A stretch of DNA of 61,728 bases, filler included, from Hausera hauseri (lineage: Eukaryota): the NCBI GenBank assembly GCA_046269625.1. It is 11 parts of 11 records of this genome, joined end to end, with 100 filler letters (N's around TTAATTAATTAA, not from the genome) between each part and the next. Parts side by side here need not be neighbours in the genome. Positions count along the whole stretch, not along the records: positions 38,862 to 45,333 come from JBJURY010096876.1; 10 more parts are not named here. The stretch is one strand, 5' to 3'. Every line of letters begins with the position of its first letter. The first letter of the stretch is position 1. The notes below the pieces were generated by a model, which saw only the letters and a list, made by a program, of their open reading frames with translations, was not told the DNA's origin and searched no databases. The translations under genes and the position numbers were made by a program. Below, piece after piece: positions 2,421 through 61,728 of the stretch.

Positions 2421-2478
2421 ACAATCTGATTGACTAGAGCAATTTAAAAACGTAACACTACCAACGACCACTACAGAT

Positions 2479-3995: not shown

Positions 3996-4050
3996 CAAAC
4001 TGGTTCACTTCTCATTTCATACAGCTGCAATTTTACGCCACGAAAAACCC

Positions 4051-23567: not shown

Positions 23568-24870
23568 CTAAAATATGTTTCACGTTCGTGAATTCATGAA
23601 ATTTAGAAACTTTACTAAAATAATATGCGGGAAAAAAGTTGTTCACAAGGATATATAATTATAATTATAGTAAATGTACAGCTCATTCCCGGATTACTTG
23701 TTACACAAAATATTTGTTCATGTGAAATACTGATGTAATATCAGTGAAATTAACAGCATTCAAAATAAAATCCACAATAGTTTTATATTTTGTGGGTTTC
23801 ATTCAACCACTTTTTAGCTTGATATAATCGTCTGTCTACCGTTGCAATATAAGTAATAATTGAAAAGACCTAAATTCAACGCATCTTCTGGAACAATATT
23901 CTAAATAAAAATTTCAAGTAATAATATCTTTTGTATTTTTGACTTTTACCTTTAGTTGCTGAAATAATTTCTTTAAACCAATATTCCGGATGTCACATTT
24001 ATTTCCTTTTTAAAATACAACAAATACGCTTATATGTTAATGGTTGATTAGTCAGAATCGTAAATCGCCCAATTAGAAATTAGACATTCAATATAATTAA
24101 GATATTTGTCACATATTGTTTGAGCTCTATTTAATCTAAGAATGTAAAACCAATTAGTTTGATGGATTTTAACAATTTCTAATTGATTCCGTGGTACGCA
24201 ATCACAAACATCATACCAGAACGATGTCATGTTTTGCACTTTTTACTTATCCAAATAGATAATTTGTTTCGTTTAATATATCTGTAGTAACCAAAATGAT
24301 CCAAATTGGACAAACTGTTAAATAAATATGTAGTATATCTATAATTTGTTTCTTAAAACACCCGCGTCGTATGCCTGATATATGTATTCCTTGTGGTATG
24401 ATTGATGTACGAGTGAATGTGGAGAGAAATAAGCATGGGGAAGTGTGGTATTAAAATCGAGTAATTGAGTAAGTTAAACTAAATAATTATTCACATTTTA
24501 ATTAGACTTAAAAATTGAAAACCAAATGCAATGTTTACACATTCAACCTAATCTGTAATTAATATGATCGGAATAATTTGTTACTACTCAAGATTAATTG
24601 CCAAAAAGCCCAGGAATCTGAAGAGCTGTAATTGATTTATCTACCAGAAAGAATCAAATGTATCTGCTACGGTTACAAGCATGGTAATCTTTAAATGCAG
24701 TCAAATAGAGAATGAGATGACTAATAAGTACAATGAAAAGAATATCCCGTGATCATAATTTGCGCAATTCAGAAATTAAAATGTGTAGATATGTGATGCT
24801 TTAATTTTCTGCTGGTCGCTCTGTCAAATTGTCAAAATAATAATTTTGAAAGATTGAGCAACACATCTGT

Positions 24871-28930: not shown

Positions 28931-29029
28931 TTTTTGCTGGGCACTTTTGGATCGGTAGTGCACAGTGCGCATTATCGATCGGCACAGGTGCAAAATCGAT
29001 TTATCGATTACCCCCTCCATTATTTTCAC

Positions 29030-29660
29030 ACTACTCTCCATGCAATCTGATATTTTGTTCAATAATGATTTTTCTGGTTTTGATCCTCCTTCTCCAACTA
29101 TATGGCCAAGGTAGGATACTGCATTTTGAGGCCATTTACATTTCTTCGGGTTTAATTTCAATCTTCTTCTGTTTTTGACGATACCATTACATCATCTAAA
29201 TATGCAAAGACATGGCCTTGTCCCATTAACATTTTGTTCATTATTCTTGTAAAAATAGCTGATCCGGTAGTAATACCGAAAGGCAGACGCTGAATTCATA
29301 AACGCCATTGTGTGTTTTGAATGCTGTTTTATATCGATCTTCGTCTTCAATTTCTACTTGCCAATACCCGGATAGTAAATCCAGAGTAGTGAACCATTAC
29401 GCTCCTGAGGGTCTATCTAGAGCCTCCTTTACTGATGGCAATGGGAAAGAATCTTCCATCATAAGATTATTTAATGCTCTTTAGCCAGTGCAGAATCGAT
29501 GTTTTGTAGTACCTTTTTTAACCTTGAGAATTGGTGAATACCAATATCTATAGCTGGGCCTAATAATATCGGCCTTAAGCATCCGTTCTACCCCTTTTGT
29601 TATCTTTGGTCCCAATGAATGAGGTGGAGGATACCATTTCCGCATCTTCTGATCCTCAAA
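29030..29660 (-). pseudogene. Reverse transcriptase, Ty3/Gypsy type
   Basis: FTTLDLLSGYWQV..DRYKTAF, LPFG, FAYLDD (29191-29202), LKLNPKKC..YLGHIV. Confidence 0.93.
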
Positions 29661-30129
29661 GTCTACTTCTTCATTCGAACCTGATTTTTTCTTAAGCGAA
29701 ATAATCACTTTTAATGTTTTTGCTTTACCGATATCTTTGTCGCCTTTAGCAATGATTGATTTATGGTGACACAGCTATTCATAAAATCGGTAGTAAGATT
29801 CAAGTAAACACTTAGTTTCAACATGAGGAGCATTATTTGCTATTCTGATCGGTACGCGACCGGATTGTACTCTTGTCAGTATATTACTGAGTATTATATT
29901 AGGATTTAATGCCTCCTTGGGTTCAAAATATAAAGGTTGATCGTCATTTTGTTGAATTTGCGCATAAATTATTATCGCTGTCCTCGGCAGAATATTTTCA
30001 TCTACTGGTATCCACACTTCTCCAAGTTTCCTATCCTTAGCCTTTTTTATGCCTTTATATTGTCTGATTTCTATTAATTTTCCTGCTTGCAAGTCAACTG
30101 CCATATTATGTAGTCTTTTCAGTAGATCA

Positions 30130-30410
30130 CACAATAGAACTACGTCGTCAGTTTATTGTTCCATAAATACAAATTATTGACAGAAAAGCTGTCCAACTAT
30201 TTGAATTTCTAGGTTCCATTTAAACATTGGTTTTGACATTTGGCCAAAAGATCCTGTACTTCCTGGGTCCATCGTAGATGGCGAATATAATTGTTCTCTT
30301 AGAGTTTGGGGTACTGAACCATTTTTAATGTAAGACATCTCAGAACCCGCATCGATTAATGCGTAAACTTCCCAGTCTTCAATAATGATTTTGGCGAAGG
30401 GTCTTCATAC
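30130..30410 (-). pseudogene. Aspartic protease
   Basis: RPFAKIIIEDWEVYALIDAGSEMSYI, catalytic Asp at 30351-30353. Confidence 0.85.
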
Positions 30411-30829
30411 TATTACTGTTCCAAAACAGTTCAATGCCGCTTTTGATCGTGTAGTTGCCGATATTTTATATCCATTGATTCAAATTTCCGGGGAGGATAC
30501 TATGTTTTCCGACAATTGTTTCCGTTTTCCGTTTGGATATAACTCATTGTTTCCGATGTCCAACTCTTCCGTTTCATGTGTACTAATTAATGGTTCTCGA
30601 TTGTTAGTTTGTGGTTCTATATTCCGGAAGGTTTGTAATCTTTGATTTCCCCAGACAGGCGGTCTAGCCTATATATTCCGAAGTTTTTTCGGAGACTACA
30701 ATATTCTGGGGTCATCCACGGGCTGTCAGTAACACATTTTCCGTAGGACTCCATAACGTTTTGTTCCTTCGTAAGGGTCTTCTAAACTAATTGTCATTTT
30801 ATAGATTTCTGTCTGATATGAACTCATTG

Positions 30830-31772
30830 ATCATTCGTCATCGTTTTGTGATACAATTCGGTTATTCCGACTTGCCCTTTATAACTGACGTAATCGTCTC
30901 GGTTTTTCAGGTAATCCTCAATCCGAAAATCCAGCGTTTCTAGCTTTTAAATATTCGCATTCATTTCCTTTTCGGCGACGATAAATACTTCATAATTAGT
31001 GGCGAACATCACCATTTCGCTGCGGGAGTTCATTTCTTAATAAATTTTAGTCCATACTGGTCGGCGGTCAATATAATAGGTGTATGGTGTTCTGCTATGT
31101 CCTCGCGTATCCTTGGTTAGTATCGGATTTATCTATAAATCGTTTTTCGATGGTTTCGATAAATTTCAATTCATTAATTTTGATAAAATTACAGCTTCTT
31201 CAAAAGGGAGGTTTCCATATTATTACAAAACTTCTGAAGGCACAGGTTCCATCTTGTAAATGGCATTTTTGATTCTCAATGTAATTTGGTGACACTATGG
31301 AACATTACTTTCTGTACCCGCATCTCCGATTTATAGAAACCTACGAACACTACATTCGATTCTAATCCTTTTCTGCTGTCGTATTCTGCTCAATTACAGT
31401 GTCCATTATGCATGTCTAGCCTTCCAACCACTACATTAAATGCTCTAATTATCTTTCCTGGTTGCATCTCTCATTCCATGCTATCCCATTTTACTCTTCC
31501 GGTTTCCCTGGCTTGCTTACAATGCTGGCGTTCCAAATTCACCGGGATTAAAGGCATCGTTGGCTTGATTATTGCATTAATCTACAGTGGAAAATGCTAC
31601 GGGACCGTCTCAACGTACATTCCATTCCATCCAAGGATATCAATTCTTGCTGTTTTCTTGTTTCCAGTTTGTGTGGTTTGGTGTCCTCGCATACTTTTAA
31701 ATCCATTAGAGAATATTTTGTCCTACTTATATGCTTCATTAATATCATCAAAGTGAGTAAGATAATTAACCA
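30830..31772 (-). pseudogene. env: N-terminal half of chuvirus-like glycoprotein
   Basis: Hydrophobic WLIILLTLMILMKHI, then SLMDLKVC..MECTLRRSRSIFHC..GQVGITELY; collinear with 55334-56352. Confidence 0.75.
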
Positions 31773-34700
31773 ATTAGATTCGCTTTTCCGGTTACTATTA
31801 TCCGTCGTTGTCAAATTGCGTAGCATATCTTCGAATCTATTTCTATTTCTAGAACGTTTGTCTTTTTCCTTATGGAATAGTCTCGACCAATTTACTTCGC
31901 AGAGTGGCTTTCTTGCAGCTCTTTGTGCTAAGATGGTAGCTATATTAATTTTATGCTCTCGACGGGGGTTTATTTTGAAATCTAAGTACAATAATACTTT
32001 TCTTAATTCTTCAGTGGTGTGTTCTACCGTGATCTTTTCGATCACCGATTCATAGGTTAACTTACTTTTTGATAGTTTAAAATGTGAACTTCTGATCATC
32101 TTAGCGGCACTGAATATCGCTCTATTTTTATTGTCTAATGGGTCGCCTCGAAGGCTTGAATAATTTACAATTCGTATTAAATTCTTCATTAATTCACTCA
32201 ATTCGTCATTGTCCGTGCCGAAGGTAGAAATCGACATCTGTCTTAATTCTCTAATCAACGCACCATTATAATCGGCTTCTTCTCTTGTTTTCTTAGGTCT
32301 ACCGACTGGGTGTTTCTGTCTTTGACATTGGTTATCGTTTCACTCAGGGGTACTAATTTCTTGTCGTATTGATTCTTGTCTTTATCCGTTTAAATATTCA
32401 AAACACATTGCAGCATCCCGGACTCCCATGATGTATCCTACACATTGTTCTGTCTTGGCCTTACGGGTGGCTTCTTCTTTAGTCTGTTCATTGGCTACTA
32501 TTACCACGATAGGATTTGATGCGTCGAGTATGATCTGAACGTCTATTGACTGTTCTAGATCGTCCAGTATTCTACCTCAAAAGTAGAATCTATAGTTTAG
32601 TTTATTCGTTCCACCATTGCTTATCAACCATTCTCTTACATCTCTCATGTAGGACTACGTAATTAATTCACATTCCTTTTCATCCATCCACTCGCATGAT
32701 ATTTTTACTTTCATCGTTACCTCGGGTATAGCCTTCACGATCTTAGCGTATTTCCATATTAAAAGTTTCGGCACCGCGCTAGAAATTGTGTTTTCACTAG
32801 ATAATTTAGTCAAAGTCGGAATGAGTTGTCTTAATTTGCTTTCGACAATGCTTACATTAATTAGTTCAATTAAATCCCTTTCAGTTAGCGCTGAATCCAG
32901 GAGCATCTCCACATTGAATCTTCTGTTATGTGGACACGTTTCTAATTCGTTTAGCTGTACCGGAGTCACAGAATTCTCGGCCGTTATTGCATCTAAATAC
33001 GCGTCCCATTCCGGTAAATTTCCAACGTCTGGAAGCCCATAGTCCGTCAACGTTGTGTTGAATCTGCACACATTTTCTCGGATTTCTTTCAATTTTTGCT
33101 GTATTTCTTTTATCTGCATAGTTAGGAAACCTATTCCGTTTCCACAGGCATAATGAATCATTTTCAGTAGTTTGGCTAGTTCTTTAGAATGGATGAGTCC
33201 CTTCTGGTGATAATGAGTTAGTTCCATGATTACATCTCTGCCATCTTGGCACCAATTCACGCTTATTTTTAATTTTGGACTCGGTAGAAGCATACTTTTT
33301 CCTATAAGTTTTAAGCTTTTTGGTTAATTCGTCTAACATTGTCGCTCTTTGTTTGGTTTTAATGCACGTTTCTTGGGCCTGTCGTATTTGAGGCATCCAT
33401 TGTCTCATCTTTTCATCAGTAATTTCTGTTATGTCTACTAAAAGAAAAGCTAGCTCATACATTTCATTAACGATTTTTGAGTCGGGATCTATCGCATCGA
33501 GCAATTTCTTTACGAACTTAGCTTCTGCAAAACTAAGATGAGGGTAGTTTCTTATTTTTTTCAACTTGGTATGACAGTTCTGATCTGTTCCAACCATACA
33601 TTCTTGTGGTTTATGTATGAATCTCATGGCTTCTTCCATAACCGTTTTATGTTCTGGACAGATATCTAAAGTTTCAATATCCTGGACAAAAATTTCGTCG
33701 GTAGACTTAGCTTTTAAATGTTGGATTCCTTCTAAACGGACATTCCTTATTCTTGGATAAAAATTGCAAGTCATATTCTGCTTTTTTGTGAAGTTTGTTT
33801 CTTCGATCATTTTATATATCTCTTCCAATATCGATACTTCTTGTTTCTTCTTCATAAAATTTAATCATCGTAATGCTTTGAATTGAGTCCGAATATCTAT
33901 TTCCGCTTGGATTGAATCTAAGTTACTGCACTTTCTTCTAATTGTTTCTTTACAGAAGGCTCCCTTTCTAGAAAATCTTACTAATTTACTTAGTCTCGCT
34001 GCTAATTTGGACTATTTATGCAGTTGATTCGCCATCACAGGTTTTACCAATATCGCCTTGTCTAGCAATTTATAAGCATCCTTTAATTCATCATCTGCAC
34101 ATTTTATGAAATTCATAATCCGGCTGACATAATCGAACTCATCCTTATATTCGTCAAATTCTATGATACAAGCCTTTATTACATACTTGGTTTCCGCGTT
34201 ATTCATAAACATAATTCGATTCCTCAAGCTACCAATTTATGTTCTCTTTTCATTCTCTATTTTAACACTATCCTCTAAATTCGCGCATTGCCTAGGCACA
34301 GCGAAGGAAATTTTTATCATTTCCATTAAAGGAGGAATGTCTACCGATTCTATAGCCAATATTTCTAAATCAATATCACTGCGATCGCAAACCGGTTTTA
34401 CTCTAAGTCGATTAATCATTGTACATCGAATTTCATCCATCAAGTGTTCTAAATTACGAACTACTCTCTATTTTTAGATTAGCTTCTAGTGTAGATAATA
34501 ACGTTTGAGCCTTGGCTACTTTCACATCAACACTATCTTTTCTTTTACTCCATCCTTCCGAGAATTTGACTCCACTTTTAATCCATCATTCTAATTCACG
34601 TTTCCATTTTATTAACGGTTGGTACCTCTTCAGGTTGTCCTAAATCGATTGCTTCATCGAGCTTTCCTTCACTGCATAATTTTAAACTTTTATGTAACCT

Positions 34701-35530
34701 CTCCGCAAATTGTTGCTCTTTTCCGCATATATCTACTTGTTTGTTAATCTGTTTAAGTCTTTCTAATTTTCATTTTCTTTAATACTTTGGCGTTTTTCCA
34801 CAAACGTCGAATTTTTTATTTTTTGGATCGAAATCATCAATATTTCGCGTTTCTTCCTCACTAGTGGGAAGTGGGCAAATCTCGTTAATATCGTTAACCG
34901 ACTCTACATATTCTTTTACTTCGATAGGTGTAAATTGACCAATTTGTGACGCATTTAAGGTAGGCTCTACGACACTCCCTACAGCGATGTTCGTATCTAT
35001 CGTTTCTTCTATCTGCTCTTTAGTTATTTGCGAACGTGAACGACTTCTACGTTTCGTTTTTAATAAAGGGCTGCGGCTTCTATTTTTCGTAATTTTAAGT
35101 ATTAATGGCTCCATAAATTCTTTTTCTTCTACCTCATCTTCGGTAACCTTGTCTACTTTTCCAACCTTGAACTCGGGCTCTGCATTTAAGTCGACTTCTG
35201 TCGAAGTTCCTGGTTTATCTGCTGTTCTATTACTTGTTAGCACACTCTTTTTCCGTGTCATATCAATTCGCTTTGGTGCTATCGCATATTCACATTCACT
35301 TTTTGTTTCTGCTAAACCATGATACACTTCTAATAGCCTTAATTTAACTGCGTATGTTTTAGCCATCAAAATTTGTGGGTTAATAGTCTCAGGCTGAGTA
35401 TCTAGAAAGTTTTGCAAATTTTGTATGTCGATAATAGTGCTCGTGTCTCCACGATCACCATACTTTACTTCCAAGTTTTTCTTCACTTTAAGCATACTAA
35501 TCTTATTAGGCTCAGTAAATGAAACGCTAC
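31773..35530 (-). pseudogene. Large unknown helical region X between gag and glycoprotein
   Basis: Chain of same-strand ORFs 34779..35675, 34237..34443, 34012..34227, 33184..33855, 32655..33293, 31569..32258 separated by stops and frameshifts. Confidence 0.65.
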
Positions 35531-36566
35531 GTGGATTGGGGTATGACCGTGCAATGCGTCCTTCTCCACCGCAGGTAAAATAAACTAAATTTCCATTTCT
35601 GCCGACTCTCTTCCGGCAGCCTCCATTCACAGGTGACTTGGACCTATTTGTGCTCCTATTGTCCTGGTTTGACAACCCTTGCGTAATATTACATTTCGCA
35701 GATTACTATTATTTTGACTATCCTCGTAACGATTTCGATAGTTAAAACCTTTATCCGTATTTGGATTCGACTTATTTGTATTTCGATTGTTAGCGTAATT
35801 ATTATTTCGGCTATTCCTGTAGTCGTTATTATTCCTATTTTCACAATTTCTACTTCCATTAAATCGCCTATCATCTCTTCCGCGATTATCGTTCAATTCT
35901 CATCGCCATGATCGTTCCGATTATTATTTCTATCATTTCTATCATTGTGTATGGTATACCTATCGAGTGTCATTTCTAAGTCTTGGACCAATTGCAGAGT
36001 TTTCTCGAAATTCTCAGGTCTGGCCAAAATCAACTTTTTAACTAAATCTCGGGACCAAATACCATTAATTAATTGAGTTGTCATTATGACGTCTAAATCT
36101 GGCGGAGTTGCCTTTTCCGAAGCATCGCGTTCTGCGTCAGTTTTAGCTTTTGCTACATTAGCTATCCTCAAGGTACTTACATAACTATTATCGAGTTTTT
36201 TAATGCAAATGCAAACTGGGTTACCTATTCACCCTTCTGTTGCACTCTACTTTGAAATGCCATAAGCTTCTGTTATGGAGTTACTGTCGGCAATAATTTA
36301 CGGTATAATGTTCCTACCAAGGAGGACCAAGATTTTTTTTCATCGTTGGTGAGTTCACTGTAAGCATCGGCGGCTAGATTCTTTAAATGTAATGATAAGC
36401 GTTTTATTGTTACTTCAGGAGTAAGACTAGCACCTTCTGCGTGCAATTTATAAGTTTTCAAGAATTCGTTAAGCCCGTCCGGGTCTCCGTCAGATGCCTG
36501 CAGGTTTAGAGAATCGAACGTGAAAATGTCCAACTTCTGCGCTACTGGTGGGTTATTTGCTGCCAT
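35530..36566 (-). pseudogene. gag: Gag: capsid, N/R-rich linker, degenerate CCHC knuckle
   Basis: LSLHLKNLAADAYSEL..SWSSLVGTL; RVQQKGE; QLINGI; knuckle YFTCGGEGRIARSYP at ~35540-35585. Confidence 0.85.
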
Positions 36567-36948
36567 ATTATTTACGTTATTTAGCTCTAAATTTGCTTTA
36601 TTTACTTTAGTTTACTCGAGTGGAATTTTAAACTGTTTATTTTGCGCGACAACGTCTAGTTTAATTCTATTCTCGGAATTTGAACGTTTATCTACCTTTT
36701 GTGTTTCTCTATATATATTTCGACGTGTCTCACGTATAGGTGAATTGTCTTTTAATATATGATTTATTTCTGACCTATCAATGTTTGTTCTCTCTTAAGT
36801 TCTGCTTACTTATCCCCGTAAAAATAGCCTATATACCCACATTTTAAATTCCGATTCTGAATAAATCAAGTTACTCGATGTGATGGCGCTGTTCGCAGGT
36901 ATGTAATTATTTAACTTTGATAAGTAAAGTCTAGCAAGGTACAGACTG

Positions 36949-36965
36949 TCCTGCTAGGGTCGTCA
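36949..36965 (-). promoter_or_regulatory. Primer-binding site, tRNA-Arg-like, degenerate
   Basis: TGACGACCCTAGCAGGA 2 nt inside the LTR end, resembling the complement of an invertebrate tRNA-Arg 3' end. Confidence 0.6.
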
Positions 36966-36967
36966 AA

Positions 36968-37728
36968 TGTTATATATTGGGGTAGCCCTACCCGTCTTCC
37001 ACTATATAACAGTAAGTTTCACTTAAAGTTAAGATTTTCTGTGCAGGTCGGTCTACCGTACTTGAATAGACAGACTGTACTCTAACGATTTAAAGATTAC
37101 TATTCTGGTATATGCGTGCGATCCTGTGCCAATAATTTTGAATAATTCTCACTCTTAACTATGTGATTTTACACTCTGATTTTAATCTTAATGTTGTCAA
37201 ATCACCCTTAAGGGGCGAAGGAAAACTATGGGTAATTTAGAAACAAGATAAACTTTACCGAATACTATAATTTCTGAAACGATAACACGAACTATAGAAT
37301 CACCAATTTGATAATAGTCAATAACTGAATTCTCGAACAAATGTTTCTCCAATAGTCAATAAATTTCAACTCACACGATCAATTAGACTCCAAAAATTTC
37401 TGATTCTGCCATGATTTTACAAGCCTTATATAGTTCTATCAGCTCGGGTAATTTCTTTTCGCCCACGTTTTCTGTTAATTTCTCAATAATTTGATTTATT
37501 TCAATGCCGATAATTCGCCAGAGCAATAACTAGTTTTCGATAATTTGACGTTTATAATTCATCAACGATAATTAAACTAACTAATATTTCTTTCTAATAA
37601 TATCTAATTTCTGTTCTTACTACAATTTTCTGTTTAATCAATCCGCTAATTCGCTATGTACAAATCTGCCATTTCGACTATTTACAATTTTGCCATTTCA
37701 CTATTGCATGATACCAGTTATTACAACA
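36968..37728 (-). repeat. 5' LTR of copy A (761 bp, TGTT...AACA)
   Basis: Shares start TGTTGT, internal CCCTTAAGG..GATTTGAC and end AGGGC.ACCCCAAT.TATAACA with the other LTRs. Confidence 0.88.
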
Positions 37729-37825
37729 TACCCACAAAATCAGTAAAATAAATTATGAAAGTGGTACTAAATCTTCTAGAGAAATAAATTGTGCAGAGGA
37801 TCAACATAAAAATTCGGCCGTCGAA

Positions 37826-38761
37826 GTGTCGATGACCAAATCGGAAGTCATCGACACTCAGGTGACCCATTTAATTGGGTTACCGCGTGGTTTATCTTTA
37901 TATTTTTATGTAAAAAATTCGTCAGCAGAGGAACGAGCCGTTGTTTTTTATAATCACCTCGAGCGTCACCTTTATAATAAGACCGCGAGGCTTTTCTTAC
38001 CCAATGCAGCATCCATTCCAAATAATCTTAAGGGATACAAAGTTCAACAAAGAACGTTCACGATCCTAAAAATGGAAGACCTTTGTTGCGTTCCCTAGAA
38101 ACCTTATTAGAATATACCTCAAAACTCGAGGGTATCACCATATCCGTTGTACGAGGAAATATCCAATTAGTAGTTAAGGATGAACAAAAAAGAGAAATCA
38201 CAAAACTATATCTATAGAGCCTAAAAATACCTTTCACCTTTACCAAATTCTAAGATATAAACGAAAACTGTTAATTCGATTAGAAACTGAACGAGTCCTA
38301 TTAGGCATAGAAGCCACCCAACAAGAAAATATATATACCAACTAACACCCCTAAACCAAGGTTTGAATTAATGATAGCAATCCCAAATATAAGAACGGGA
38401 ATTTCTTTTAGACGGAATTCAATAGTTGCAGAAAAAGGCCAATTAATAATAGCAACACTATTAGCCTTGCAATCCCAAAAGATAGCATCTTCCATAGAAA
38501 TTGCCATAATTGACCTACAAGGAGTAACAATCAAGAACCAGCTAATAACCCCGCGCGAGAAGATTGAAAATTATGATTCTCATATAACAGGCCTCCAAGA
38601 AACAGACGTTAGAGGTAAAACGGACTATTATGAAGCCCGTAAAATTATACTGAGCCTGATAAAAGGAAAAATACTCGTGGGATGCCAATTGGCCTATGTT
38701 ATAGAGCACCTGTTCCAAATAGATCTCCTATTTGTCCAGGGACTAAGAGACCTAATGTATT
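37826..38761 (+). pseudogene. Divergent paralogue of the accessory pseudo-exonuclease gene, outside the LTR on the opposite strand
   Basis: LFLPNAASI..ILKMED matches VFIPKSKSI..ILKVNE; IAIIDLQG..ITP..IENYDSHITGL..LIKGKILVG..LRD is REX4-like without D-x-E. Confidence 0.7.
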
Positions 38762-38861: not shown

Positions 38862-38966
38862 AACCTGACAACTACAGAACAGGTTATTCTGTCATTCAAC
38901 AAAGAATTGGTTTTGGTTTAAAACAATCCTTTGTTGTAGGATTAACCTTTATATTCTTTTTTTCAG
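38862..38966 (+). promoter_or_regulatory. Two hairpins, branch point, polypyrimidine tract and splice acceptor (copy B)
   Basis: aacctg..caggtt; aacaaagaatt..aatcctttgtt; ttaac; ttctttttttcAG; conserved at 58499-58607. Confidence 0.7.
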
Positions 38967-38967
38967 A

Positions 38968-41386
38968 TTGGTAAGTAACCAGACCGAAATGGATAGTCGA
39001 ATTACTATCGACGAGTTCATGAAGACCCAGACAACAGTATTCATTCCCAAGTCAAAGTCGATCTACCGATTCATAAACGACGCTTTACGGGCAAAAACGC
39101 AAATTGAGATATTAAAAGTGAACGAAATCCCCAACGATCTTAAAACTATAACGGAAGAAAACCGGTTCGTTTACCTTTACGCCTGGAGAGAAAACGAACA
39201 AGCAAAGGCTTATTCTATGAAAGAATTGATTCGGAAACAACCAGACAAAATCCAAGAAGTCTATCTGCATCTGGCTGAAGGAGAGCTATATTATCGGATC
39301 AACAACCAACCTTGGAATTCCCAAGAGGGACGACAGTTCAGATTTAGCACGTTTAGATTTAAAGGGTCGAAAAGTATAGATTGCAATTTGGAATTTAGAG
39401 TAGCAGCTCTTCCTACCAAAATCATGATAGAAGTAACTTATAGAGAAAACGATAAACCCAGTTTGCCTATTCTGAAGTTCGATCAAATCCCAACAGAAGC
39501 AGAAATAGACGAACACTCTCAATCATACAGGATGGTAACAGACGGACGTAACGTGAGAATTCTAGCAACAAATTGTGGTAGAGGAGACGACGGATATGGA
39601 ATTCCTATCGAAATATCTGTTAGAGAAAGAGACGGAGCCGAACTATACTCCACTATTATAAATCCACGAAAACGAGTACAAGAGTCATACGTGGAGGTAA
39701 CAGGGCTAAGAAAAGAGCAGCTTATGAATGGAAAGGACATTAACCAAGTTCGTTATGAATTAGAGCATTGCCTCTACGGATGCATGATAGCAGGATATCA
39801 TGTACGGCAGGAAATAAAGCTATTAGGGATATCCGATGCAAATATTGCCGGATTTAGGGAAATAGCTGCCCATCCAGTGGTCCAGAAAAGGATGGAGGAA
39901 ACCGCAAAAGGCAGGAATCAGTCAACGGCGCCTGAAGCTTTTTTTAAATTGATGATAGAATCAATGATTCCCAACCCAAATAGAATTCCAAGATTTTTAT
40001 CGGCAAGACAACGATCCCGACACTTACAAGAAATTTACAAAATGCTGAAATGGGAACACGAATGGATACCTCAAAATCCCGAGTATAACCTACGATGTTC
40101 GCTAACACCTGAAGCAATCGATACCAGATACCGTCGGAACATCAAACCCTATTCTCCGGTTAGAACCGTTCAGCCAATAGGAGAAAACAGTCTCTCAGTT
40201 ACGATTCAGAAATCAATTGAAACAGGAAATAAAGAAGCTCAGCCACCGACGACGGGAAACCAATCAACAAGGATTGCAAAGAAACGAGACGAGCCCAAAA
40301 CGGAAATTTTAATTAAGAAACCTAAGTTAGAAGAGCAACCCAAACCCAAAAGAACCTTGTCCATTTATGACTATTTATTTAAGAAAAGGAAGGTAAACCC
40401 CGAACAAGAAATAGGAAGACAACAAGACAGGCCAGGTACATCAAGGAATATAAGTTCGGACGGAAAGAAATTTAAAAGCCCCGTAATAACCGAAATTAAC
40501 TCCTTAATCAAAAGGAAAGACAAAGGAGAGGTACATTATAAAACAGTTCAAGACTTTCCCAAAATGCTAGTAACTACGGAATATTATAGTAAAAAATGAT
40601 CAAGGAAGCGGTGTTCTATGTGAAGATGACACCGGCAAGAGAAGTCTTTGAAAACACGTACATTTTGGAAAACCCCAAACTGGGAAAATACCTCACATCA
40701 GTATTTTGCTCCAAAAGAACGGGGAAAATAGTAGTTTCCGTAGACAAGCAGATTAGGATTCTGCTAAAGAAACAATATCAAAAATATAAGGTAGAAGGAC
40801 AGATTCCCGATTTAGATCAAGAATTTATGGCGGATTGAACGTTAATCCAAGTAGATTGCGATCCGCGGAAAAGTTCAGTGAATCCCAAACAGAAAATAAT
40901 CCACGGATATCTATATCAAGATGGCGAAGGAATCACCTTTGAGCCAATCGAGTTAACCATTCAAGTCGATTTAGATCGAGACGATTGGGGAAAGAAGAAA
41001 ATGAATGCCCTGTATGCGAAGCCAATCTACAACAGAAATACGTAATACTAGATAATAAGAACTGCCGTCACAAGTATTGCAGAGATTGCTTGGAGAAATG
41101 GACCCTAGACAATGGGAAAACCACGTGTCCGGTATGCCGTGCGGAGGCTGCCGAGTTAAAATATTATTCAAACGGGAGCTACATTCGAGTGGTCAGAATA
41201 CAACCCCATTACAGTTATAACATTGAACCAAGACCTTCAACAAGTCAAGCTATATCAGACTCTCTATTGGACTTGCAAGAAAGAATGAACCAGTTAAGAG
41301 GAACGAGACAATTGGGCGCCATCTCTCCTGACGCAATAGGCACATCCGAGGATGTCGTTCAGGGAGGAGATGTTGTGAAAGACTAA
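38968..41386 (+). pseudogene. Accessory gene: N domain - inactive DEDDh (REX4/ISG20-like) exonuclease - linker - unknown domain - RING-HC finger
   Basis: 543-aa ORF (ILATNCG..LYSTIINP..VTGL..CMIAGY), 40596..40838 and RING CPVC..CRHKYCRDCLEKW..CPVC in 40985..41386; copy C reads through the 40596 break. Confidence 0.8.
41361..41370 (+). promoter_or_regulatory. Polypurine tract
   Basis: AGGGAGGAGA directly before LTR; same tract at 60781. Confidence 0.85.
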
Positions 41387-42171
41387 TTCTAATTCAACTC
41401 GAATCGATTATGAGAGAAAAACTAAATTGCTGTTGGCTTAGTTGATTGTGTACATATAATTCAAAATTGATTCATTGTAAATAGAATACAATTAGAAAAA
41501 ATTACGCGATATTTACAGCCATATAATGCAGTGCATTTTAATCAAAAAAATAAACAATGTTTTGAAATCGCGGAAATTGCCAAATAAATACCGATAATGA
41601 AAAATAAATTGAAAAAGCACCTGCTTCGAACTATAAATACGAGATCGAATGAGAAAGAAGGAGAACAATTTTTGATCGACTGTAGCGTCGGTTAAACCTG
41701 CGATTTTGAAACTTATTTGCGAAAAGTTTTTCCTCGACTGTAGTGTCGAACAGCTAGTTATTCATTGACTATAGAGTTGATTGGTGTTGTGAAGATTTCA
41801 GTGATCCATTCAGTGATATTCAACAGTGCTAAAGACATTCATTGATTGCTGTGATCCTTTGTGTTGGCTATTACATTGGTATATTATTGATCCTTTTCTA
41901 AATTCCCACTATAGTTTTTCATCGGCCCTTAAGGCTGATTTGACGACCGTAAGAAGTAAAATTTACTTAAACTCTTATAGGCACGAGAACGCTATTTAAC
42001 CGTTGCACAAGACACGACACGCAGTACACGCAGTTTTTTTTTAAAAATCAATATACATTGGCACATTCGTTTAACAAGAACGTTAAACCGAATCTGCATA
42101 AGAGACTAACTTCCAGAGTAAACTACTGTTATATAGCGGAAGATCGATAAGGGCCACCCCAATCTATAACA
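41371..42171 (+). repeat. 3' LTR of copy B (801 bp)
   Basis: TGTTGTG...CTATAACA, TATAAA ~41632, preceded by PPT, homologous to the other two LTRs. Confidence 0.9.
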
Positions 42172-46986: not shown

Positions 46987-49116
46987 ATCTTCAGCACAGT
47001 CCTCAAAGGAAAGGGCTTTCTGTGTAGAGGTTGAAGCTGCACTTGTGCTGGAATCTGAAAAGGAGCGTTATCTTTCAGTTACCCTGATGCACGCTCAATA
47101 ATCAGACTGAGGACGTCTTTCGGACAAAAGACGAAACGTTCCTACTTTTTTGTTGTTGTTTCTTTGAATGTCCAGAGGACCAGACTTAGCTTTTTTAGAT
47201 ATCTTTCAGCTACTTATTTCTTTATGGCTTCAGTATAATTTTAAGACAACAGATGAAGTAGCTGTGAAAATTATCCAAATACTGCAATCTATGCAACAAA
47301 CTGATATTTAAGGGTAAGTTGAAACAAACCTTTAAAGAACTCTGTATTTTTTGCACTCGCTTTTTCCTTCACTAGAAATGACAGCAGTGATGGAAGGGTC
47401 ACGGATGTCTGTTGTGTAGCTGCCAGGACTGTAGACAGTCAGAAGAAAGTAAACAAATGATTTCATGTAGCCTAAAAACATCAAGCATCAGATTTCTTTT
47501 CAGTAATATAATTTAAATTTCTTTACCGTTAACTGTTGAGGATTCTGATTCACCTGATGCACCTGAACACCTGGACACCGTTGCAGTTGGACCTAAATAA
47601 AGATAATGCATCAGTCACTGTATGAATCACAATTGAACACAACAGGTGGTGTTAGTGGAAACTCAAAAAGTTGTGCTTTCATTCCTTCTGCTTATCAGAC
47701 CTCTAAAAATATTTTTAAAGTAATTTCCAGAAGTGGGAAATGCAACAAACTACAAAGTGAACAACTGACTACCTCTATACTAGCTCTAAGCAGGAGAAAC
47801 AACAGCACTGAAGTGAACAAACATGTCAGCTGTTAGTAACTAGTATTGATTAAAAAAAAAAGTTAAACATGCAGAATATATACTCACCAGCATTCGGGTT
47901 GGCACAATATCTCCATCAATTCATAGTCCTTTGACTATTTAATGGGTGGCAAACAGCAATATTGTAACAGGAACATGACCGGAACGTGGCCAGAACACAA
48001 GAACACAATAGGTCAAGGATCAGTTTTGGAGGGTTATTCATCGTAAAAGAGAATAACACTCCAGTCCTGAAATCTCGTATTTGAAGAAAAACCTGTCTTT
48101 GCTCTGTTTGACACTGGGGTTCCCTCCGTTTCCGCTGACCCTGCATACACAGAGACAAATATGGGAGAGTGACTAAACACAAGCATATTATATTTTAGAA
48201 TGTCAGCAAGTGTAACTATAGTGTGCTTACTGCTCTGACTCAGGAGCTTAGAGGGTGAGATGCTTAGCATTGCAGCCTCCAATCCTTCGTCCTCCTCCAT
48301 CACTATGAGAAACCAAAAAATTATGTTATACAAAAATCAAGGATCAGTTTGGGAGGAATATTCAATTTTTAAGGCAATTTTTGTCCTTTCATCTTAAAAT
48401 TGTTCATACAACATTCTTAGTTGCTCACCCAGAGGTTTATGTGGCACACTGGATGGTGTGGGTGTATGAATGGAGGATGACTGCTGTTTCTTGAGCAGGT
48501 ACTGCTGCAGCTTCTTCATCCTGGTCCCAGGAAGGCAGATCGTCTTTAGGATGAAGTCAGCATAACCATCTTCTCTACTGTCCCAAATTTCCTTCCAAGT
48601 GCTCTTGGCCCGAGAGCCAAAACCAACCAGCTGGTCATCTTCAGAAGGAGTTACTGCAATGCTGTCTCTGCTGGCTTCATAGTCCAGGGCATCTTGTATC
48701 TCCTTAAAACTGAGAGCATACTTCACAAAGGTCAGGAGGTTCACCTTGTTAAGGCTCTCTGTGATACAGATGCCAGCTTCCTCCTCCTTTTGCAGGTTTT
48801 TGATGAGGTACAAAGTGTAACCCACATCATTTTCTAAAAGCCACCGGAAAGACTTCCCTTTGTATTTGCCAAATTGGAGGTTGTAGTCTCCCAGCACTTC
48901 TGAATCATCTGTGACATCCCCTCCTCTTTGACGAACTACAGACAAAGCATTTTGCCGCACAATGTCCTCTCTCTTTGGCTCAGATTTGTCCCGCACACTA
49001 GGATCATTTTTTATCATTTTGGCCTCAGGAGAGGGGTCCTGGCGAAGAAATCCAAGGGGTCCCTTGCGGAAAACAACACTTTGTTTTCCTGGATAAAAGA
49101 TTGCGGTCTTCTGCAT
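46987..49116 (-). CDS. Multi-exon uncharacterised teleost-type gene, probably transposon-derived; exons 49116-48429, 48302-48231, 48140-48093 and further small exons
   Basis: QFGKYKGKSFRWLLENDVGY motif plus a degenerate second copy; GT/AG sites join the first three exons in phase. Confidence 0.65.
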
Positions 49117-49420
49117 TTTGGCCTAGTAAGGAGCAAAAAAGGGTGGATCATGTGTTAAAGAAAATATCTGAAACCCTTTGAAATATATTTTGCATAAGAG
49201 TTGATTATTCAACGTACCGATAGTTCAAAAAGTTTCTATTTAAGGAAACAAATGTCTTTTCCATTCTGTTCATTTAGCTCTAAAGATCAAAAAGGTGCTC
49301 AAAGTGCAGCTAAAGACAGGAAGGACATAAAATATAATGATTTATCTGTTTTTATTTACTTGTACTATAATCAGATATCAGTGTTTCAGTATACACTCTC
49401 TGATATTATTATTATTTTAT

Positions 49421-54695: not shown

Positions 54696-55333
54696 AGTCC
54701 GAGATGCTGCAATGTATTTCGAGTATTTACAAACGGATGAGGACAAGGAACAATACGACAAGAATTTAGTGCCACTGAGTGGAATAATAGCCAATTTTCC
54801 AAGGCCGAAACGCCCAGTCAACAGGCCTAAGAAGGCGCGAGAAGAAGTTGACTATAACGGAGAATTGATTAGAGAGTTTAGACAAATGTCGATTTTAATG
54901 AAGAATTAAACGAATTAATGAAGAATTTAATACGCATTGTAAATTATTCAAGACTTCGAGGTGACACATTAGATGATAAAGAAAAAGCAATATTCAATGT
55001 AGCTAGAATGATGAAAGTTCACGTTTCAAGTTATCAAAAATTAACTTAACCCATGAATTGGTAATCGAAAAGATCATGGTAGAAAACATCAATGAAGAAT
55101 TAAGAAAAGTATTACTATAGTTAGCTATCAAAATAAACCCTGATCGAGAGAATGAAATTAATAGAGCTACAAGCTTATCACGAAGAGCGGCAAGAAAGCT
55201 AACCTGCGAAGTAAATTGGTCGAGACTATTCGACAAGGAAGAAGACAAACGGTTCGGTAATAGTAATAGACTCGAGGATATGTTACGTAATTAGGTAACA
55301 ACCGGTAATAATAATCGGAAAAACGAATCAAGT
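54696..55333 (+). pseudogene. C-terminal part of unknown region X
   Basis: VRDAAMYFEYL..QYDKNLVPLS..DYNGELIREFRQMS..LMKNLIRIVNYS matches 31773-32425. Confidence 0.75.
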
Positions 55334-56932
55334 TGGCTAATCAGCTTACTCACCTTGAGTATACTAATAAAGCACATATGAGCTATTACCGTCTATGACT
55401 GCGATAAGTTTAAACTAGGGCAGAGATATTCCATAATGGATTTAAAAGTGTGCGAAGATTCCAAGCCGCACAAGTTATAAACGAAAGACAAAAATTATTT
55501 TCTGTACCAACAACAAGAATTGATATTACTAGATGGAATGGAATGTATGCCGAGACAATCTCGTAGCATTTTTCACTGTGAAATAATACACGGACATTCT
55601 TCAATAATCAAACCAACAACTCCTCAAATTCCTATGAACTTAAAACACCAGCACTGCAAGCAGGCTAAGGAGACCGGAAGAGTGCAATGGGACAGTATGG
55701 AATTAGAAATGTAACCAGGAAAGATAATTAGGGCGTACAAGGTTGTGGTCGGAAGGTTAGACATGCATAACGTATATTATAACAAAGCGGAATACGACAC
55801 GGGAAAAGGATTACAAGCAAAGGTAGTGGTCGTGGATTTCTATGAACGAGAGATGCGAGCACAGAAAGTAATGTTCCATAGTGTCACCAAACTATATACC
55901 GAGAATCAGAAATGTCATTTACATGACGTAACCTGTGCTTTTAGAAGTTCTGTTATAATGTGGGTACCTCCCTCTGGAAGAAGCTGTAATTTTATCAAAA
56001 TTAAGGAATTAAAGTTTAATGAAACTACCGGAAAGTGATATGTGGATAAATCTGATACAAACTCAAGGACACGCGAAGACGTATCAGAACATCCCACGCC
56101 CACTATATTAATCTCTGATCAGCATGGACTAAACTTTATTAAGAAAGAAATGATTTCTCGTTGTAAAGTGGTGATGATCGCTACTAACCATAAGGCGTTT
56201 TTCGTCGCCGAGACAGAAATAAATGCCAAGAATTACAAGTTAGAAACGCAAGATATCCGAATTGAGGATTATCTGAAAAACACAGACGATTACTTACATT
56301 ACAAAGGGCAAGTCGGAACAACCAAGTTATATCTTAAAATGATAACAAATGATTGTAAATTGGATTCCTATATGAGAAGGAATTTTGGTCGAGTTACCGA
56401 CGAAGTACTATTGACTTACGAATGTGAGAAAAGTGATATACCAATCAACTTTGAAGAAAAACGCTGCATGCAGAAACTTCCCGTTATTTACCAGAATATT
56501 ACAAGGTTAGCTATGCCACACACTATGGTGCTATTAAACAATGCAAATGAACCTACAATCCATAAGGATTGTAAAGCAAGCTTAGAAGAACCCATGTTTA
56601 GACGCAGTGAAACAGATTGTGTTAGTTTGCCAAATGGAGGTATTACTGCCGCTCCAAAAAATTAACAGAAACAAATCTTGCAAAAGGAATTACAAAAGAC
56701 AAATTTCAAGGCACCTCGTCAAAAGACATATATAGGCCTAAGGAAATCGAAGCCTTCAGACAATTCCTCGCTTTTCCGCGACAGGAGACACACAAATTAA
56801 ACCGAGCCATAGCCTCCGTAGTAGACGATACTCGATATCAGGCTAAATGGGAATCTTTGCTTGGCGTAAATCATTATCAGCGAGTAACCACATAAATACT
56901 CTACAAAATTTGGGGAAGATTTTTGATTTTTG
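55334..56932 (+). pseudogene. env: Chuvirus-like (class III, gB-type) envelope glycoprotein, truncated just before the TM anchor
   Basis: Signal peptide, VYDC, C..RQSRSIFHC...GHSS, WVPP..SC, ATNH, KLY..ITNDCKL, YEC..RC..KLPV.Y.N, IY....EAFRQFLAFP, KIWGRFLIF; one frame to 56665 with point stops. Confidence 0.78.
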
Positions 56933-57086
56933 ACCGTACGAAGTTACCAGAGCTACGCCAACCACAGTATACACCAACACTAATGGAAAGGAAGAGGTCA
57001 TGTCAGTACAAAGAGTTGTGAAGACGGAGATATGGCCCAATAAACGTTACAATTTACGCCAACGCGAGATAAAACTTCCTCAATAA
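56933..57086 (+). pseudogene. Integrase C-terminal GPY/SH3-like tail
   Basis: PYEVTRATPTTVYTNTNGKEEVMSVQRVVK..RYNLRQR. Confidence 0.65.
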
Positions 57087-57099
57087 TTGCTAGACCAAT

Positions 57100-58455
57100 A
57101 TCATATGTTCAGATAGTTTTAGCATTATCGTTAATTGCTTCTTATATCCTGAGAACAAAAGCTCAATGATGGGACGATGAAACTACGCTAGGAGATGTTT
57201 ACGGAATTCGAAAGAGCGGATCAAGGTCGAAAGTTATTAAAACGGAAAAGAAACGAACAGTCGAAGAAATGCAAAACAAGAAGACACAAAGTTCTTAAAA
57301 TCAATGACGATTCATTACTTTTAGCCAGACACTATGTGCGTCGGATTTAAAACTTGGAGACCTCATCGCAATTTCGGAAGATTTCAAATTTTCCCATATG
57401 ATGTAACAACAAAAGAAGTAAAAAACTGTGACCTTGAACTCGGAGATTATTTTCAGTGCTGCGACGTAGATTTTGAACATGTTTACATCCTTTCTTATCG
57501 AGTGTTCTTACCAGTCTCATCAGAAATCTATATGGAAGTAAACCCACAAAATGTGTTGATTATTCCATCTTGGCCCGGGCGATTCGGAAGGAAGCCCGAT
57601 GAAATTCTACAGTTCACCAACCCATATATAAGGCAATTAGATGAAAATATCAAAGGAATCGCGGTAAACCAGGAAAAACAATGCATTCAAATAGATGCTC
57701 GAACAGGATTAACTTTTAGTCAAGAAATTAGTATCATTTTCGAAGCAGTGAACGGAAAAACCCCGAGAATAAATTACTGTTCTGTTCATGCCGGTATGCA
57801 ACGCCCATGTTGTAAGTTACCAGTAAACCAAGAATTCGAAATAAAATTCGACTTATATGAAGTAAGACCGAATAAACCGAGCAAACATTTGCGGACTTAC
57901 TATACGAAAAATAGAGTATTGAGGATTCCAGTAGAAACGATTACCAAAAGGCCAATTACTCGAGTTAGTGCCATTACGAGACCGGCTACGTCGAGCAGTG
58001 TCCCTAAAAGAGAACTAGGAAGCATACCTATTAAATATTCGACGCATCGATCTAAAATTGTGTTCTTTGTAGAAGAAAAACAAATTTACGATATACACAT
58101 AAGTTGCCGAACAACCCATAATAATCACATTGTAACATTACTTAAAAGCACTTATCAGACAGAATGTTGTTTGTTGAAACCGCAATCTGATTACATAGTA
58201 CAAATAAATGCAGAAGATAAACAAAACCAAACAATTACATTACGTACCTTGGACAAATTTCGTGCAGAATCGCATACATATGAAAATATAGACGATGAAA
58301 TCACAACTCCACTCACCATACAAGCACCACTGAGATTAACCACTTTACCGATCGTATCTATTTTTGTAATGTTAACGTTTGTTCTCATTATACTAATTGC
58401 GATTTTTCTGTTAGTTTTCAAAAACTATTATTCCAAGCGTCCTAACATTACATAA
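57100..58455 (+). CDS. Type I membrane protein with FN3-like domain; signal peptide ~57100-57170 disconnected from the 373-aa ORF 57334..58455
   Basis: YVQIVLALSLIASYILRTKAQ; LKPQSDYIVQINA resembles FN3 L.P.T.Y.V.V.A; TM IVSIFVMLTFVLIILIAIFLLVF. Confidence 0.65.
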
Positions 58456-58498
58456 TTGGAACTAACGGAATTGGAAACCCCTATTGTTCCGTATGATA

Positions 58499-58607
58499 AA
58501 ATAACCTGACAACTACAGATCGGGTTATTCTATCATCTAACAAAGAATTAGTTTCATTTTAAAATCATCCTTTGTTTTAAGATTAACTTTTACTGTTTAT
58601 TTTTTAG
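58499..58607 (+). promoter_or_regulatory. Two hairpins, branch point, polypyrimidine tract and splice acceptor (copy C)
   Basis: aataacctga..tcgggttatt; aacaaagaat..atcctttgtt; ttaac; tttttttAG. Confidence 0.7.
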
Positions 58608-60790
58608 ACCGATAAGTAAAGAGAGAAATACGAAAACGGATACCGCACGACCTAGGATCGACGGACCACGATCTATCCAAGAACGAGAACGATGTAGTAT
58701 CGATAAATTACCAAAACGCCGACTTAGTATTGACAAGTTCTTGCAGAATTACGCTACCGTGTTTCTCCCAAATTCTAAATCAATATATAATTCTGTCAAC
58801 AACCGTCAGAAAAGGATTTGGACACATTCCTACAATCGTATAGACTAGTGAAAATGTCAGAAATACCAGAATCGTAGCAATCAATTGTGGAGGAGGAGAT
58901 GGCGCACGAAGGATTCCAATGGAAGTCTTAGTTCGAGAAACGAACGGAACAGAAATATATTGTACGATTATCAGCCCGAGAAAATGCGTTCGCGAGACAT
59001 ACTTTGATACGACAGGAATTCGTAAGGAAACACTCTTGAAAGGTAGAGATATCAAACTTGTTCAGGCAGAGTTAGAACATTGTTTATACGGATATATTAT
59101 AAGTGGATATCGCATCGATATCATTGTCGAACTCTTAGAAATACCCATGTCAAGCATCGTAGAAATGCGCGAGATAAGATTACATCCAGTAGTCGCCGAG
59201 CAGAACAAACGAATATTGCGAGAAAGGAATTACCCCGCACCAAAAGTAATGGATGCCTATTTCAAATTAATGGTCGACGCCATGAATAGCGAACATGTTA
59301 AGATTATCAAACTGTTAATCGCACGTCAACAAACTCAATACTTGAGAGACATTTACGTAGCTTTAAAATGGGGCCATGAGTGGACACCCAGTAATCCAGA
59401 ACAAAATTTAAGAAGTACATCCGAACCAGAAACTATGAACAAAAAGTATCGGAAGCAGTATTGTTCGTATTATTTGTGTAGAGTCGTGGAACACATGGGA
59501 CAGGATATAATCAAAATAACTATTCGGAAATTAGATCAATCGTGCACTGATGTGCCAAGCACCAGCTATGGTTCTCATATCAAACCAATTTAAGAAATAA
59601 AATCTACAATCAAGGAAATAGAAGCAATTCAGACATTCAAAGTACCCAAAATTCCACCAAAAAATAGAAAGTTGGAACACAAATTTTCTTAATCAAAAGA
59701 AAATTATCCATCTATAATTACTTGTTCAAAAAGAAAAATAAAGGAACAAGCTCAAACCAAGCTCAAGAAGACCGAACCGATAAAACGAACGAAGAACCCG
59801 AAATTTCAGAGATAGCAAGAGAAATTCTTACGACGTCCACAAATGACCAAATGGCAATCCCAGAAAAACCCAAGAGAAAAACATACAAGCACAAGAACCT
59901 AGTGAGCGGATATCAACAACTGTTCACTGAAGTAAATATCCTAAGAAAAAGGAATTCCCAAGAATATGTACATTTTGCAACAACTAAGGATTACCCAAAG
60001 ATGCTAATAACTACCGAGTATTATAGTCATCAGAAAATTAAAGAAGCGATGTTTTTCGTTAAGACCACACCAGCTCGAGAAGTATACGAAAATACCTACA
60101 TTTTGGAAAATCCTAAAATAGGAAGGTATATTGCACCAGTTTTCCAATCGAAAAGAAACGGCAAGTTAACAGTGCCAGTAAATAAACAAATGAAAACAGT
60201 ATCAGAAGTATCAAACGCATGGCGAAATTCCCGATTTAGATCGAGATACCATCGCCGATTGGATCTTAGTACCAGTAGGTTGTGACCCCAAAAAGAGTTC
60301 TGTAAACCCTAAACAAAAGAGAATCCATGGTTACCTATATCAAGATAAAGATGGTCTCATATTCGAACCTATAGAGCTCACAATAAGAGTAGATTTAGAC
60401 GATGAGAAATGGGATAAAGAGGAAAACGAATGCCAAGTATGTGAAGCACATATCAGTAAAGGATACGTTGTTTTGAATAACCGTGATTGCCGACACAAAT
60501 AGTGCGAGATTGCTTGGAAAAATGGACCCTAGATAATGGCAATACCACCTGTCCGGTGTGTAGAGCCGAAGCAACTAAACTGAAATACTTTTCGAACGGT
60601 AGTTACACCCGTGTAGTTCGAATAAAACCCCATTACAGTTATGAATTGGAAACGAATCCCCGAGAAACCCAGCCAAATACGGACTCAGAAGTGAGCTTAC
60701 GTAGACGAATAAATCTCCTAAGACAACCACGTTATGGCGTACCTCTCCTGATGCAATGGGCACATCCAAGGATGCCGCTCAGGGAGGAGA
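58608..60790 (+). pseudogene. Accessory pseudo-exonuclease-RING gene, copy C, internally deleted and frameshifted
   Basis: VFLPNSKSIY; IVAINCG..IYCTIISP..TTGI..ELEHCLYG; PKMLITTEYYS..TPAREVYENTYILENP; CQVC..CRHK..DCLEKW..CPVC. Confidence 0.8.
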
Positions 60791-60792
60791 AA
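60781..60792 (+). promoter_or_regulatory. Polypurine tract
   Basis: AGGGAGGAGAAA before LTR. Confidence 0.85.
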
Positions 60793-61728
60793 TGTTGTAA
60801 AGACGTTCAGAAAGATGTAAGACGTCCAAATTGTAAATACTATTATAAGCAGCATATTGTAAATATTTATTATTTTATAATATTTTCCATTATTGTACAA
60901 ACTTAAGAATTTGTACAAATATAAAGAAGGAATTTAGCAATAATTTGATATATTTTTAGAAAATTAGGAAAAAGCATTGAATTTATTAATTTTTAAATCA
61001 GAAAATACTGAAAAATTCAGCTAAACTATTTACAATTCCAAGAATATAAAATAAAATTAGTCACGTATGCAGTTGCATTAGTATATAAGCAAGTAGCAGA
61101 TATGAAATTTTTGAGTTGTTTGAAAGTTTATTCGAAGTTTTATTTGAGAATTATTTGAGATTACTCGAACTTCATTAGAGAAGTTTTCAATTGAGTTTAT
61201 TTGCGATGTTGAAAAGTCGTTGAAGATATTTGAAAGTTATTGCAAAGACGATATTCAGAAGCTTCCTTAACAGAGATAATTTCGAGAAATTAAATTGAAG
61301 AAGCATTGCAGAAGAGTTCCAGAAGTTTTCGAAAAAGCATCGAGAATTATTGTCGGGTTGCGAAATAGATTCCTGAAACAGTTCATTTCATCTTCAATTC
61401 CGATACCGGAGGTGTATCCAAGATGACGTAATTGTTGTTATTGTAAAAATATACTTGTTATTCTAAAATTCTTATATAGTTTCTCATTGCCCCTTAAGGG
61501 GGATTTGACTACACTAAGGTCTTCAATTCTACTGTAAAATTATATAGTTAAGAGGAGAATTTGTTAAACATTTTGCACAAGACCGCTAGCGAGTACCAGC
61601 ATTATTGATTAAACTAATTGTTATAAGGTACAATCTGTCTATTCGATAACGGTAGACCTTACCTGCATTAAGGTACTCAAATCTCAAGTGTAATTATTGT
61701 TATATAGTGGGAGTTGTATAAGGGCCAC
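60793..61728 (+). repeat. 3' LTR of copy C, last ~14 nt cut off by window end
   Basis: TGTTGTAAAGAC start; CCCTTAAGGGGGATTTGAC ~61490; ends TGTTATATAG..AGGGCCAC like the other LTRs. Confidence 0.88.

Follow-up and report, generated by a model that had tools for sequence, protein, structure and literature searches.

A Ty3/gypsy accessory gene of Hausera hauseri with a predicted pseudo-exonuclease domain of ISG20-like fold and a RING finger

Exonuclease ORFs of LTR retrotransposons are already known from bdelloid rotifers, where the Juno and Vesta LTR elements, and also the Terminons, carry an ORF3 exonuclease of the DEDDy type, for which roles in RNA handling or in silencing are discussed (PMC5408684, main text). 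The accessory gene analyzed here resembles ORF3 in that an extra ORF of an LTR retrotransposon encodes a 3'-5' exonuclease fold. However, ORF3 is described in the same text as RNase D-like, DEDDy and intact at its site, whereas our gene is of the DEDDh (H-x4-D) type, predicted to be dead, and combines this domain, an AlkB-like barrel and a RING finger in one product; the word RING is absent from the main text of that paper (PMC5408684).

The layout of the element recalls the giant gypsy elements Burro/GYPSM1, where env is placed between gag and pol and where ubiquitin-related MATH, Ubi/SUMO-like and BIR domains and a motif annotated AIR1 were reported (PMC6431247), as well as the GAG-ENV-POL elements found in nematodes, bryozoans and flatworms (PMC13524379). 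In the portions of these articles that describe them, Burro and the other GAG-ENV-POL errantiviruses have env before pol and a mononegavirus-like glycoprotein, the same as our element (PMC6431247, PMC13524379). The ubiquitin-related domains listed for Burro are in or upstream of the polyprotein, whereas the RING is here in a 3' gene; section 7 of PMC6431247 mentions neither a 3' exonuclease nor a nuclease-RING gene for Burro, and the main text of PMC13524379 holds no match to “exonuclease”, “RING” or “DEDD”. Besides, no Pfam match to Burro-type MATH, BIR, BCL2 or ankyrin domains was obtained among the 31 ORFs of our DNA stretch or in two partial polyproteins. Burro proper is planarian and exceeds 30 kb, and our element, read from partial copies, has LTRs of about 0.8 kb.

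Host genes offer an analogy, not a membership: human PML-1 contains in one protein a RING and a catalytically inactive, RNA-binding DEDDh fold (PXL), and Drosophila Exuperantia (Exu) is an RNA-binding pseudo-nuclease (PMC13659232, in part). PML-1 and Exu are nevertheless host proteins, TREX/Plex9-like and with a SAM-like subdomain, the RING of PML-1 being in an N-terminal RBCC (PMC13659232), whereas our gene is ISG20-like, has a C-terminal RING and stands on the parasite side. Exu compares with the model of P0001, the best relative of our gene, at Z 9.6 only, against 16.7 for ISG20. With ISG20, ISG20L2, REX4 and SDN1 the gene has fold and profile in common, but it has lost their catalytic residues and is on a branch separate from the host-type rows. 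On the viral side, herpes ICP0, baculovirus IE2 and poxvirus p28 are RING E3 accessory proteins, the RING of p28 being joined to a nucleic-acid-binding domain. They resemble our gene by a RING that is the element's own, here of predicted activity, but are not known to contain a pseudo-nuclease; IE2 was a weak match in our search. No gene joining barrel, dead DEDDh domain and RING was found by full-text literature searches, a scope outside which Repbase and supplementary files may list the ORF, and this combination appears to be new.

The window, i.e. the whole stretch of DNA analyzed (61,728 nucleotides), consists of 11 contigs with artificial 100-nt linkers between them, and the accessory gene under study belongs to the contig at 38862-45333. 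Three contigs carry parts of one Ty3/gypsy LTR-element family (copies A, B and C), the whole element being present in no single contig of the window. Copy A (28931..37728, minus strand) has its 5' LTR at 37728-36968, then a gag-like region, an env-like region, protease and RT, in gag-env-pol order; a PBS-like sequence is seen at 36950-36967 (minus strand), directly after this LTR. Of copy B (38862-42171, plus strand) the accessory gene is left with the 3' LTR behind it, whereas copy C (54696-61728, plus strand) starts with env and continues with an ORF of membrane type, then the accessory gene and an LTR. The upstream part of copy C (54696..58455, plus strand) contains the env-like fusion glycoprotein region (PF24664, E 3.7e-7; tblastn against the env of the relative L001, E 4e-49) and an ORF with a hydrophobic, transmembrane-like end. 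Its accessory gene (58620..60800, plus strand), from which most of the barrel is deleted, has the exonuclease at 58859-59452, a purine tract at 60781-60792 and the LTR from 60793. In copy B the polypurine tract (41361..41370, plus strand) is overlapped by the end of the gene, whose stop is at 41384-41386; the 3' LTR (41371..42171, plus strand), of TG...CA form and about 800 bp, aligns with the LTRs of copies A and C. The GAG-ENV-POL features present are the LTRs, the polypurine tract and, in copy A, the env-like region ahead of PR and RT; the full env-PR-RT-RH-IN order in one frame is read in the loci of two relatives, L001 and L004. No other gene follows the accessory gene in this Ty3/gypsy LTR element of gag-env-pol type, and its coding sequence finishes on the polypurine tract. 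The contigs of two public sequencing runs (X1 and X2) indicate a family with many copies, and many of them part from copy B right past the purine tract, into other LTR types.

The gene of copy B opens at ATG 38989, 22 nt past a pyrimidine tract ending with AG which, with a branch-like TTAAC, forms a putative splice acceptor upstream of it (38942..38966, plus strand). The segment 38862-38983 is 80% alike in copy C, and a T-rich tract plus AG also stands just ahead of the accessory-gene ATG in L001 and L004. A donor-like GTAAGT (38967-38976) occurs only 4 nt past the predicted acceptor, and the residues read there recur upstream in the relative P0003; it could mark a micro-exon. The first frame piece (38989..40599, plus strand) encodes 536 aa; the frame is broken near 40590 and near 40990, with one stop at 40836-40838, and the three pieces total about 797 codons. 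A profile of the three exonuclease pieces of the window, searched against 1.84 billion proteins, gave 416 matches, of which the best, P0001 (870 aa, E 1e-63), is a single record on one contig. P0001 is a natural unbroken frame that covers the three pieces of copy B in order, by its residues 43-614, 617-742 and 744-870 (E 6e-159); it has a C3HC4 RING, and its final residues are the same as those of copy C over the purine tract. Exonuclease and RING are one gene because the unbroken P0001 matches all three pieces, and their fusion is settled without rebuilding the decayed copy. The initial annotation had already proposed one ancestral ORF of about 800 aa, with frameshifts mostly at different places in copies B and C and a RING near the gene end just before the polypurine tract, and was right in this.

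Copies B and C are both broken, as would be expected from a chance juxtaposition or a decaying passenger, in which a nuclease captured from the host and an independent RING gene would only seem to be joined. However, the single open frame of P0001 largely refutes this, the breaks differ between the two copies, and the purifying selection discussed below also goes against it. The stop of copy B is absent from 22 X1 contigs (2748/2760 of the depth there) and from 6 X2 contigs; at the first frame break the length differs from copy B in 5 X1 contigs (380/893 of the depth) and 1 X2 contig, X1 being possibly the source of this same DNA and depth not being equal to copy number. Moreover no separate protein made of the pre-RING domain and the RING appeared among 2699 candidates of 27-401 aa, which is a weak negative. 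We consider such a fortuitous assembly as hardly credible. A word-based protein search with the ORF of copy B gave no match, and with the alignment of pre-RING domain and RING it gave only P0001 among the longer proteins; viral-contig scans and one metagenome scan returned no relative of the RING lineage. Three short stretches (38862-38973, 39758-39869 and 41326-41437) have far more contig depth than their neighbors; the second, inside the exonuclease, might be a signal at the DNA or RNA level.

The structure of P0001 was predicted from a 56-row alignment, with pLDDT mostly 74-96 over residues 51-430; the RING is confident too, the linker and the middle domain are not (mostly 30-50 for the latter), and the single-sequence fold of the copy B ORF was unusable (pLDDT 36). 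All domains of copy B are on the plus strand. The first (39001..39531) is 43% identical to P0001 over 175 aa. In the model, residues about 50-205 match Ofd2 (Z 9.8, rmsd 4.6, 140 aa), ALKBH1 (Z 9.0, 3.3, 135 aa), AlkB (Z 8.4) and cupins (Z 8.2-8.4), all middling scores, so that we read this domain from the model as a double-stranded beta-helix of 2OG-oxygenase/cupin type whose subfamily cannot be told. An HxD/E...H metal triad shared between relatives was not found: any HxD/E occurs in 10 of 42 rows, at most two of them in the same column. The nuclease domain (39544..40074) has ISG20 as the top structural match of the model (Z 16.7, rmsd 2.4 A, 158 aa; Foldseek E 1.1e-7). A three-row exonuclease profile against the PDB gave five top matches all of DnaQ type, sequence-profile matches to ISG20, ISG20L2, REX4 and SDN1 ranged from E 2.6e-6 to 1.4e-5, and Atlas assigned copy B to RNase_T (0.94, 189 shared features). 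The modeled domain is thus DnaQ-like alpha/beta, of the ISG20-like DEDDh fold.

A poorly conserved linker follows (40075..40530), predicted to be disordered (pLDDT below 50 in the P0001 model) and carrying basic clusters. Then comes a conserved unclassified domain of about 135 aa (40531..40990), in which or at the end of which fall the three breaks of copy B; it has 67-70% amino acid identity between copies B and C and 51-54% to P0001, and gave no usable family, Atlas or PDB match. The proposal that its end is the C-terminal hairpin of the family was dropped, since 123 of 500 shuffles scored as high. The RING (41006..41140) shows the eight zinc ligands in C3HC4 spacing, is above the cut-off for PF00097 and PF13639 (PF00097 E 2.6e-8; PF00097 is above it in P0001 as well) and matches RING E3s of the PDB. 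Active RING E3s are marked by an E2-binding tryptophan in the helix and by an arginine after the last cysteine. Both are found here (within 41090-41101 and at 41138-41140) and are the same in copy C and P0001.

Motif I reads ATNCG in copy B (39565-39579) and AINCG in copy C. The D-x-E of ExoI of the intact-site relatives aligns without gap to A-x-N in copies B (39565-39573) and C, P0001 and P0003, with Asn at the position of the Glu in 4/4 rows. The ExoII acid is kept as E in copy B (39811-39813), and only there as compared with copy C and P0001; the H and D of H-x4-D in ExoIII are replaced in all three (L and R in copy B). Four of the five catalytic residues are then missing in copy B and all five in copy C and P0001, so that the nuclease domain of the RING lineage has lost its catalytic residues, as judged from these alignments. 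Over 39535-39625, the 44 contigs that align at 80% likeness or more, a threshold at which more distant copies are not seen, display 8 variant places, 6 of them at third codon positions, and no acidic residue in motif I.

These residues also bear on the idea that some unusual chemistry still lets the domain cut nucleic acid, or that the barrel works as an oxygenase through a metal site of non-standard type, the RING serving only self-turnover. The constant Asn of ExoI speaks in its favor, as do a His and a Glu/Asp conserved in the barrel (32/42 and 39/42 rows respectively). However, no acidic cluster is left for two-metal catalysis and the barrel has no shared HxD motif; we regard a residual enzyme as very improbable. 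The initial annotation had recognized the two motif I variants, the REX4/ISG20-like DEDDh fold and the loss of the catalytic residues, and all three are confirmed, but its register was two residues off (N-x-G in place of A-x-N). Its gene content was also incomplete: exonuclease and RING are well in one frame, but the AlkB-like barrel and the conserved domain before the RING had been missed. In the RING-bearing lineage we found no intact D-x-E, no fold other than DEDDh and no separation into two genes, whereas RING-less relatives often keep D-x-E.

Silent sites have reached saturation between copies B and C (pS 0.74-0.77), but the protein is conserved: pN is 0.33 for the exonuclease (195 codons, pN/pS 0.36-0.54), 0.18 for the middle domain (144 codons, 0.17-0.33) and 0.15 for the RING region (76 codons, 0.11-0.29). 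The ratios understate the constraint because pS is saturated. These two copies, although far diverged, have the same dead site; therefore the pseudo-enzyme is maintained and not decaying, and its catalytic loss is older than the decay of the copies, as had been suggested initially. This comparison of codons argues that the dead nuclease domain is kept under purifying selection.

Catalytic states were tallied among the best 150 of the 416 profile matches, 43 of which share the barrel and nuclease core, some being partial. Among these 43, D-x-E is kept in 31 and lost in 12, and all five catalytic positions are kept in 27. The RING is found in only one of them, P0001, which is also the only one of the 154 proteins examined, plus copies B and C; eleven other dead relatives, several partial, are RING-less. 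The RING is thus a lineage-specific addition. L001 and L004 are intact-site, RING-less relatives downstream of an env-PR-RT-RH-IN polyprotein of 3,000+ aa, and loci L002 and L003 are too short to show the gene context. Copy B groups with P0001 and P0003 in one clade (100/100), and catalysis must have been lost at least twice in the family. In each of our two trees the RING lineage has a dead group without RING as its sister, but a different one each time, at a place where long branches meet: P0007/P0096 (95) in one tree, P0036/P0070 (66/90) in the other, which omits three long rows. Since the two trees disagree on this sister group, nuclease loss and RING gain may have come in either order, and a nuclease that died ahead of the RING's arrival is only one possibility.

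One may ask whether the dead nuclease is rather a protein-binding decoy of the host REX4/ISG20-like enzymes, which would bind no RNA and would place the RING next to the partners of these enzymes. The structural ranking headed by ISG20 and ISG20L2, and the loss of catalysis at least twice, would suit a decoy. By contrast, identity to ISG20 and ISG20L2 is only 13-19% in the structural alignments, and the barrel family stands well apart from the host-type REX4/ISG20 rows (96, quick tree), a poor fit with close mimicry; we find the decoy rather improbable.

A third barrel and pseudo-exonuclease gene, more distant and from another element, occupies 37729..38761 (plus strand; PF00929 E 1.4e-4, barrel and exonuclease profile matches). 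Its nearest relative is the RING-less P0007, its 3' end is lost at the contig end, and it stands back to back with the 5' LTR of copy A, so that copy A seems to have landed in another element or next to it. Four other proteins, P0002, P0004, P0005 and P0008 (730-800 aa), have REX4-like exonuclease domains repeated three or four times in tandem, several without catalytic residues, and hydrophobic N-termini.

The reading we favor, with a confidence that stays a little under an even chance, is that of a pseudo-enzyme which binds RNA or an RNP and directs ubiquitin ligation towards host factors of silencing or decay. A spliced subgenomic RNA would give the accessory protein; its two dead RNA-enzyme folds, barrel and nuclease, might bind the RNA of the element or a host RNP; the RING would then recruit a host E2 and ubiquitinate the proteins bound there for their removal, and the transcripts of the element would be protected by the removal of these host proteins. 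A more precise form is possible and appreciably less probable: an old accessory exoribonuclease would have been switched off and kept as an RNA reader beside the dead AlkB-like barrel, then as a RING fusion would destroy the host proteins of small-RNA silencing.

Retroviral budding is known to use ubiquitin, the element carries env, and its accessory gene is under strong selection, so the ligase could also serve the element's own particle, the dead nuclease being carried by Gag or by the genomic RNA, while the RING would ubiquitinate Gag or Env for budding, sorting or uncoating. However, particle release cannot generally need the RING because most relatives in the same gene position, e.g. L001 and L004, have none, and the basic clusters hint at a nuclear site; we take a role in the particle as unlikely.

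Coming back to the steering of host factors, only a small number of transposon-encoded proteins are known to antagonize silencing in animals. If a silencing factor is indeed the target, the retrotransposon would have in this gene a counterpart of the antagonists of Vif/Vpx type, and PML-1 would be mirrored on the parasite side; a host substrate, if found, would point to a defense step that such elements must beat. The unbroken natural protein P0001 makes RNA binding, ligase activity and substrate directly assayable. The family, besides, is a natural series of intact-site nucleases, dead ones without RING and a dead one with RING, in the same gene slot where the context is visible.

Some minor features of these elements and of the window can be added. 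The region 57325-58455 of copy C, before the accessory gene, is beta-rich with a hydrophobic, transmembrane-like end, and a region of the same kind follows the integrase in L001 and L004; a second membrane protein is possible in both cases, the sequence similarity between the copy C ORF and the C-terminal part of the polyprotein of L004 being not significant (E 0.079). Between env and RT, two protease-like motifs are readable in L001 and three in L004, where Pfam counts two stretches. Small extra ORFs of coiled-coil-like composition, with no Pfam match, flank the accessory gene (L001 9207-9875, L004 11571-12008). Elsewhere in the window, other mobile-element remains (1-4050, 13183-13713, 18999-19862, 27456-27899 and 48394-49122) comprise a separate gypsy pol, two Tc1-like transposases, an endonuclease VII-like ORF and an ExoX-like C-terminal match. 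Finally, an eIF4E open frame of 184 aa (23039-23593, minus strand), nearest to animal proteins and thereby, like the Tc1-like transposases, a pointer to an animal genome, is free of introns where it matches; it could be either a retrocopy or a single large exon.
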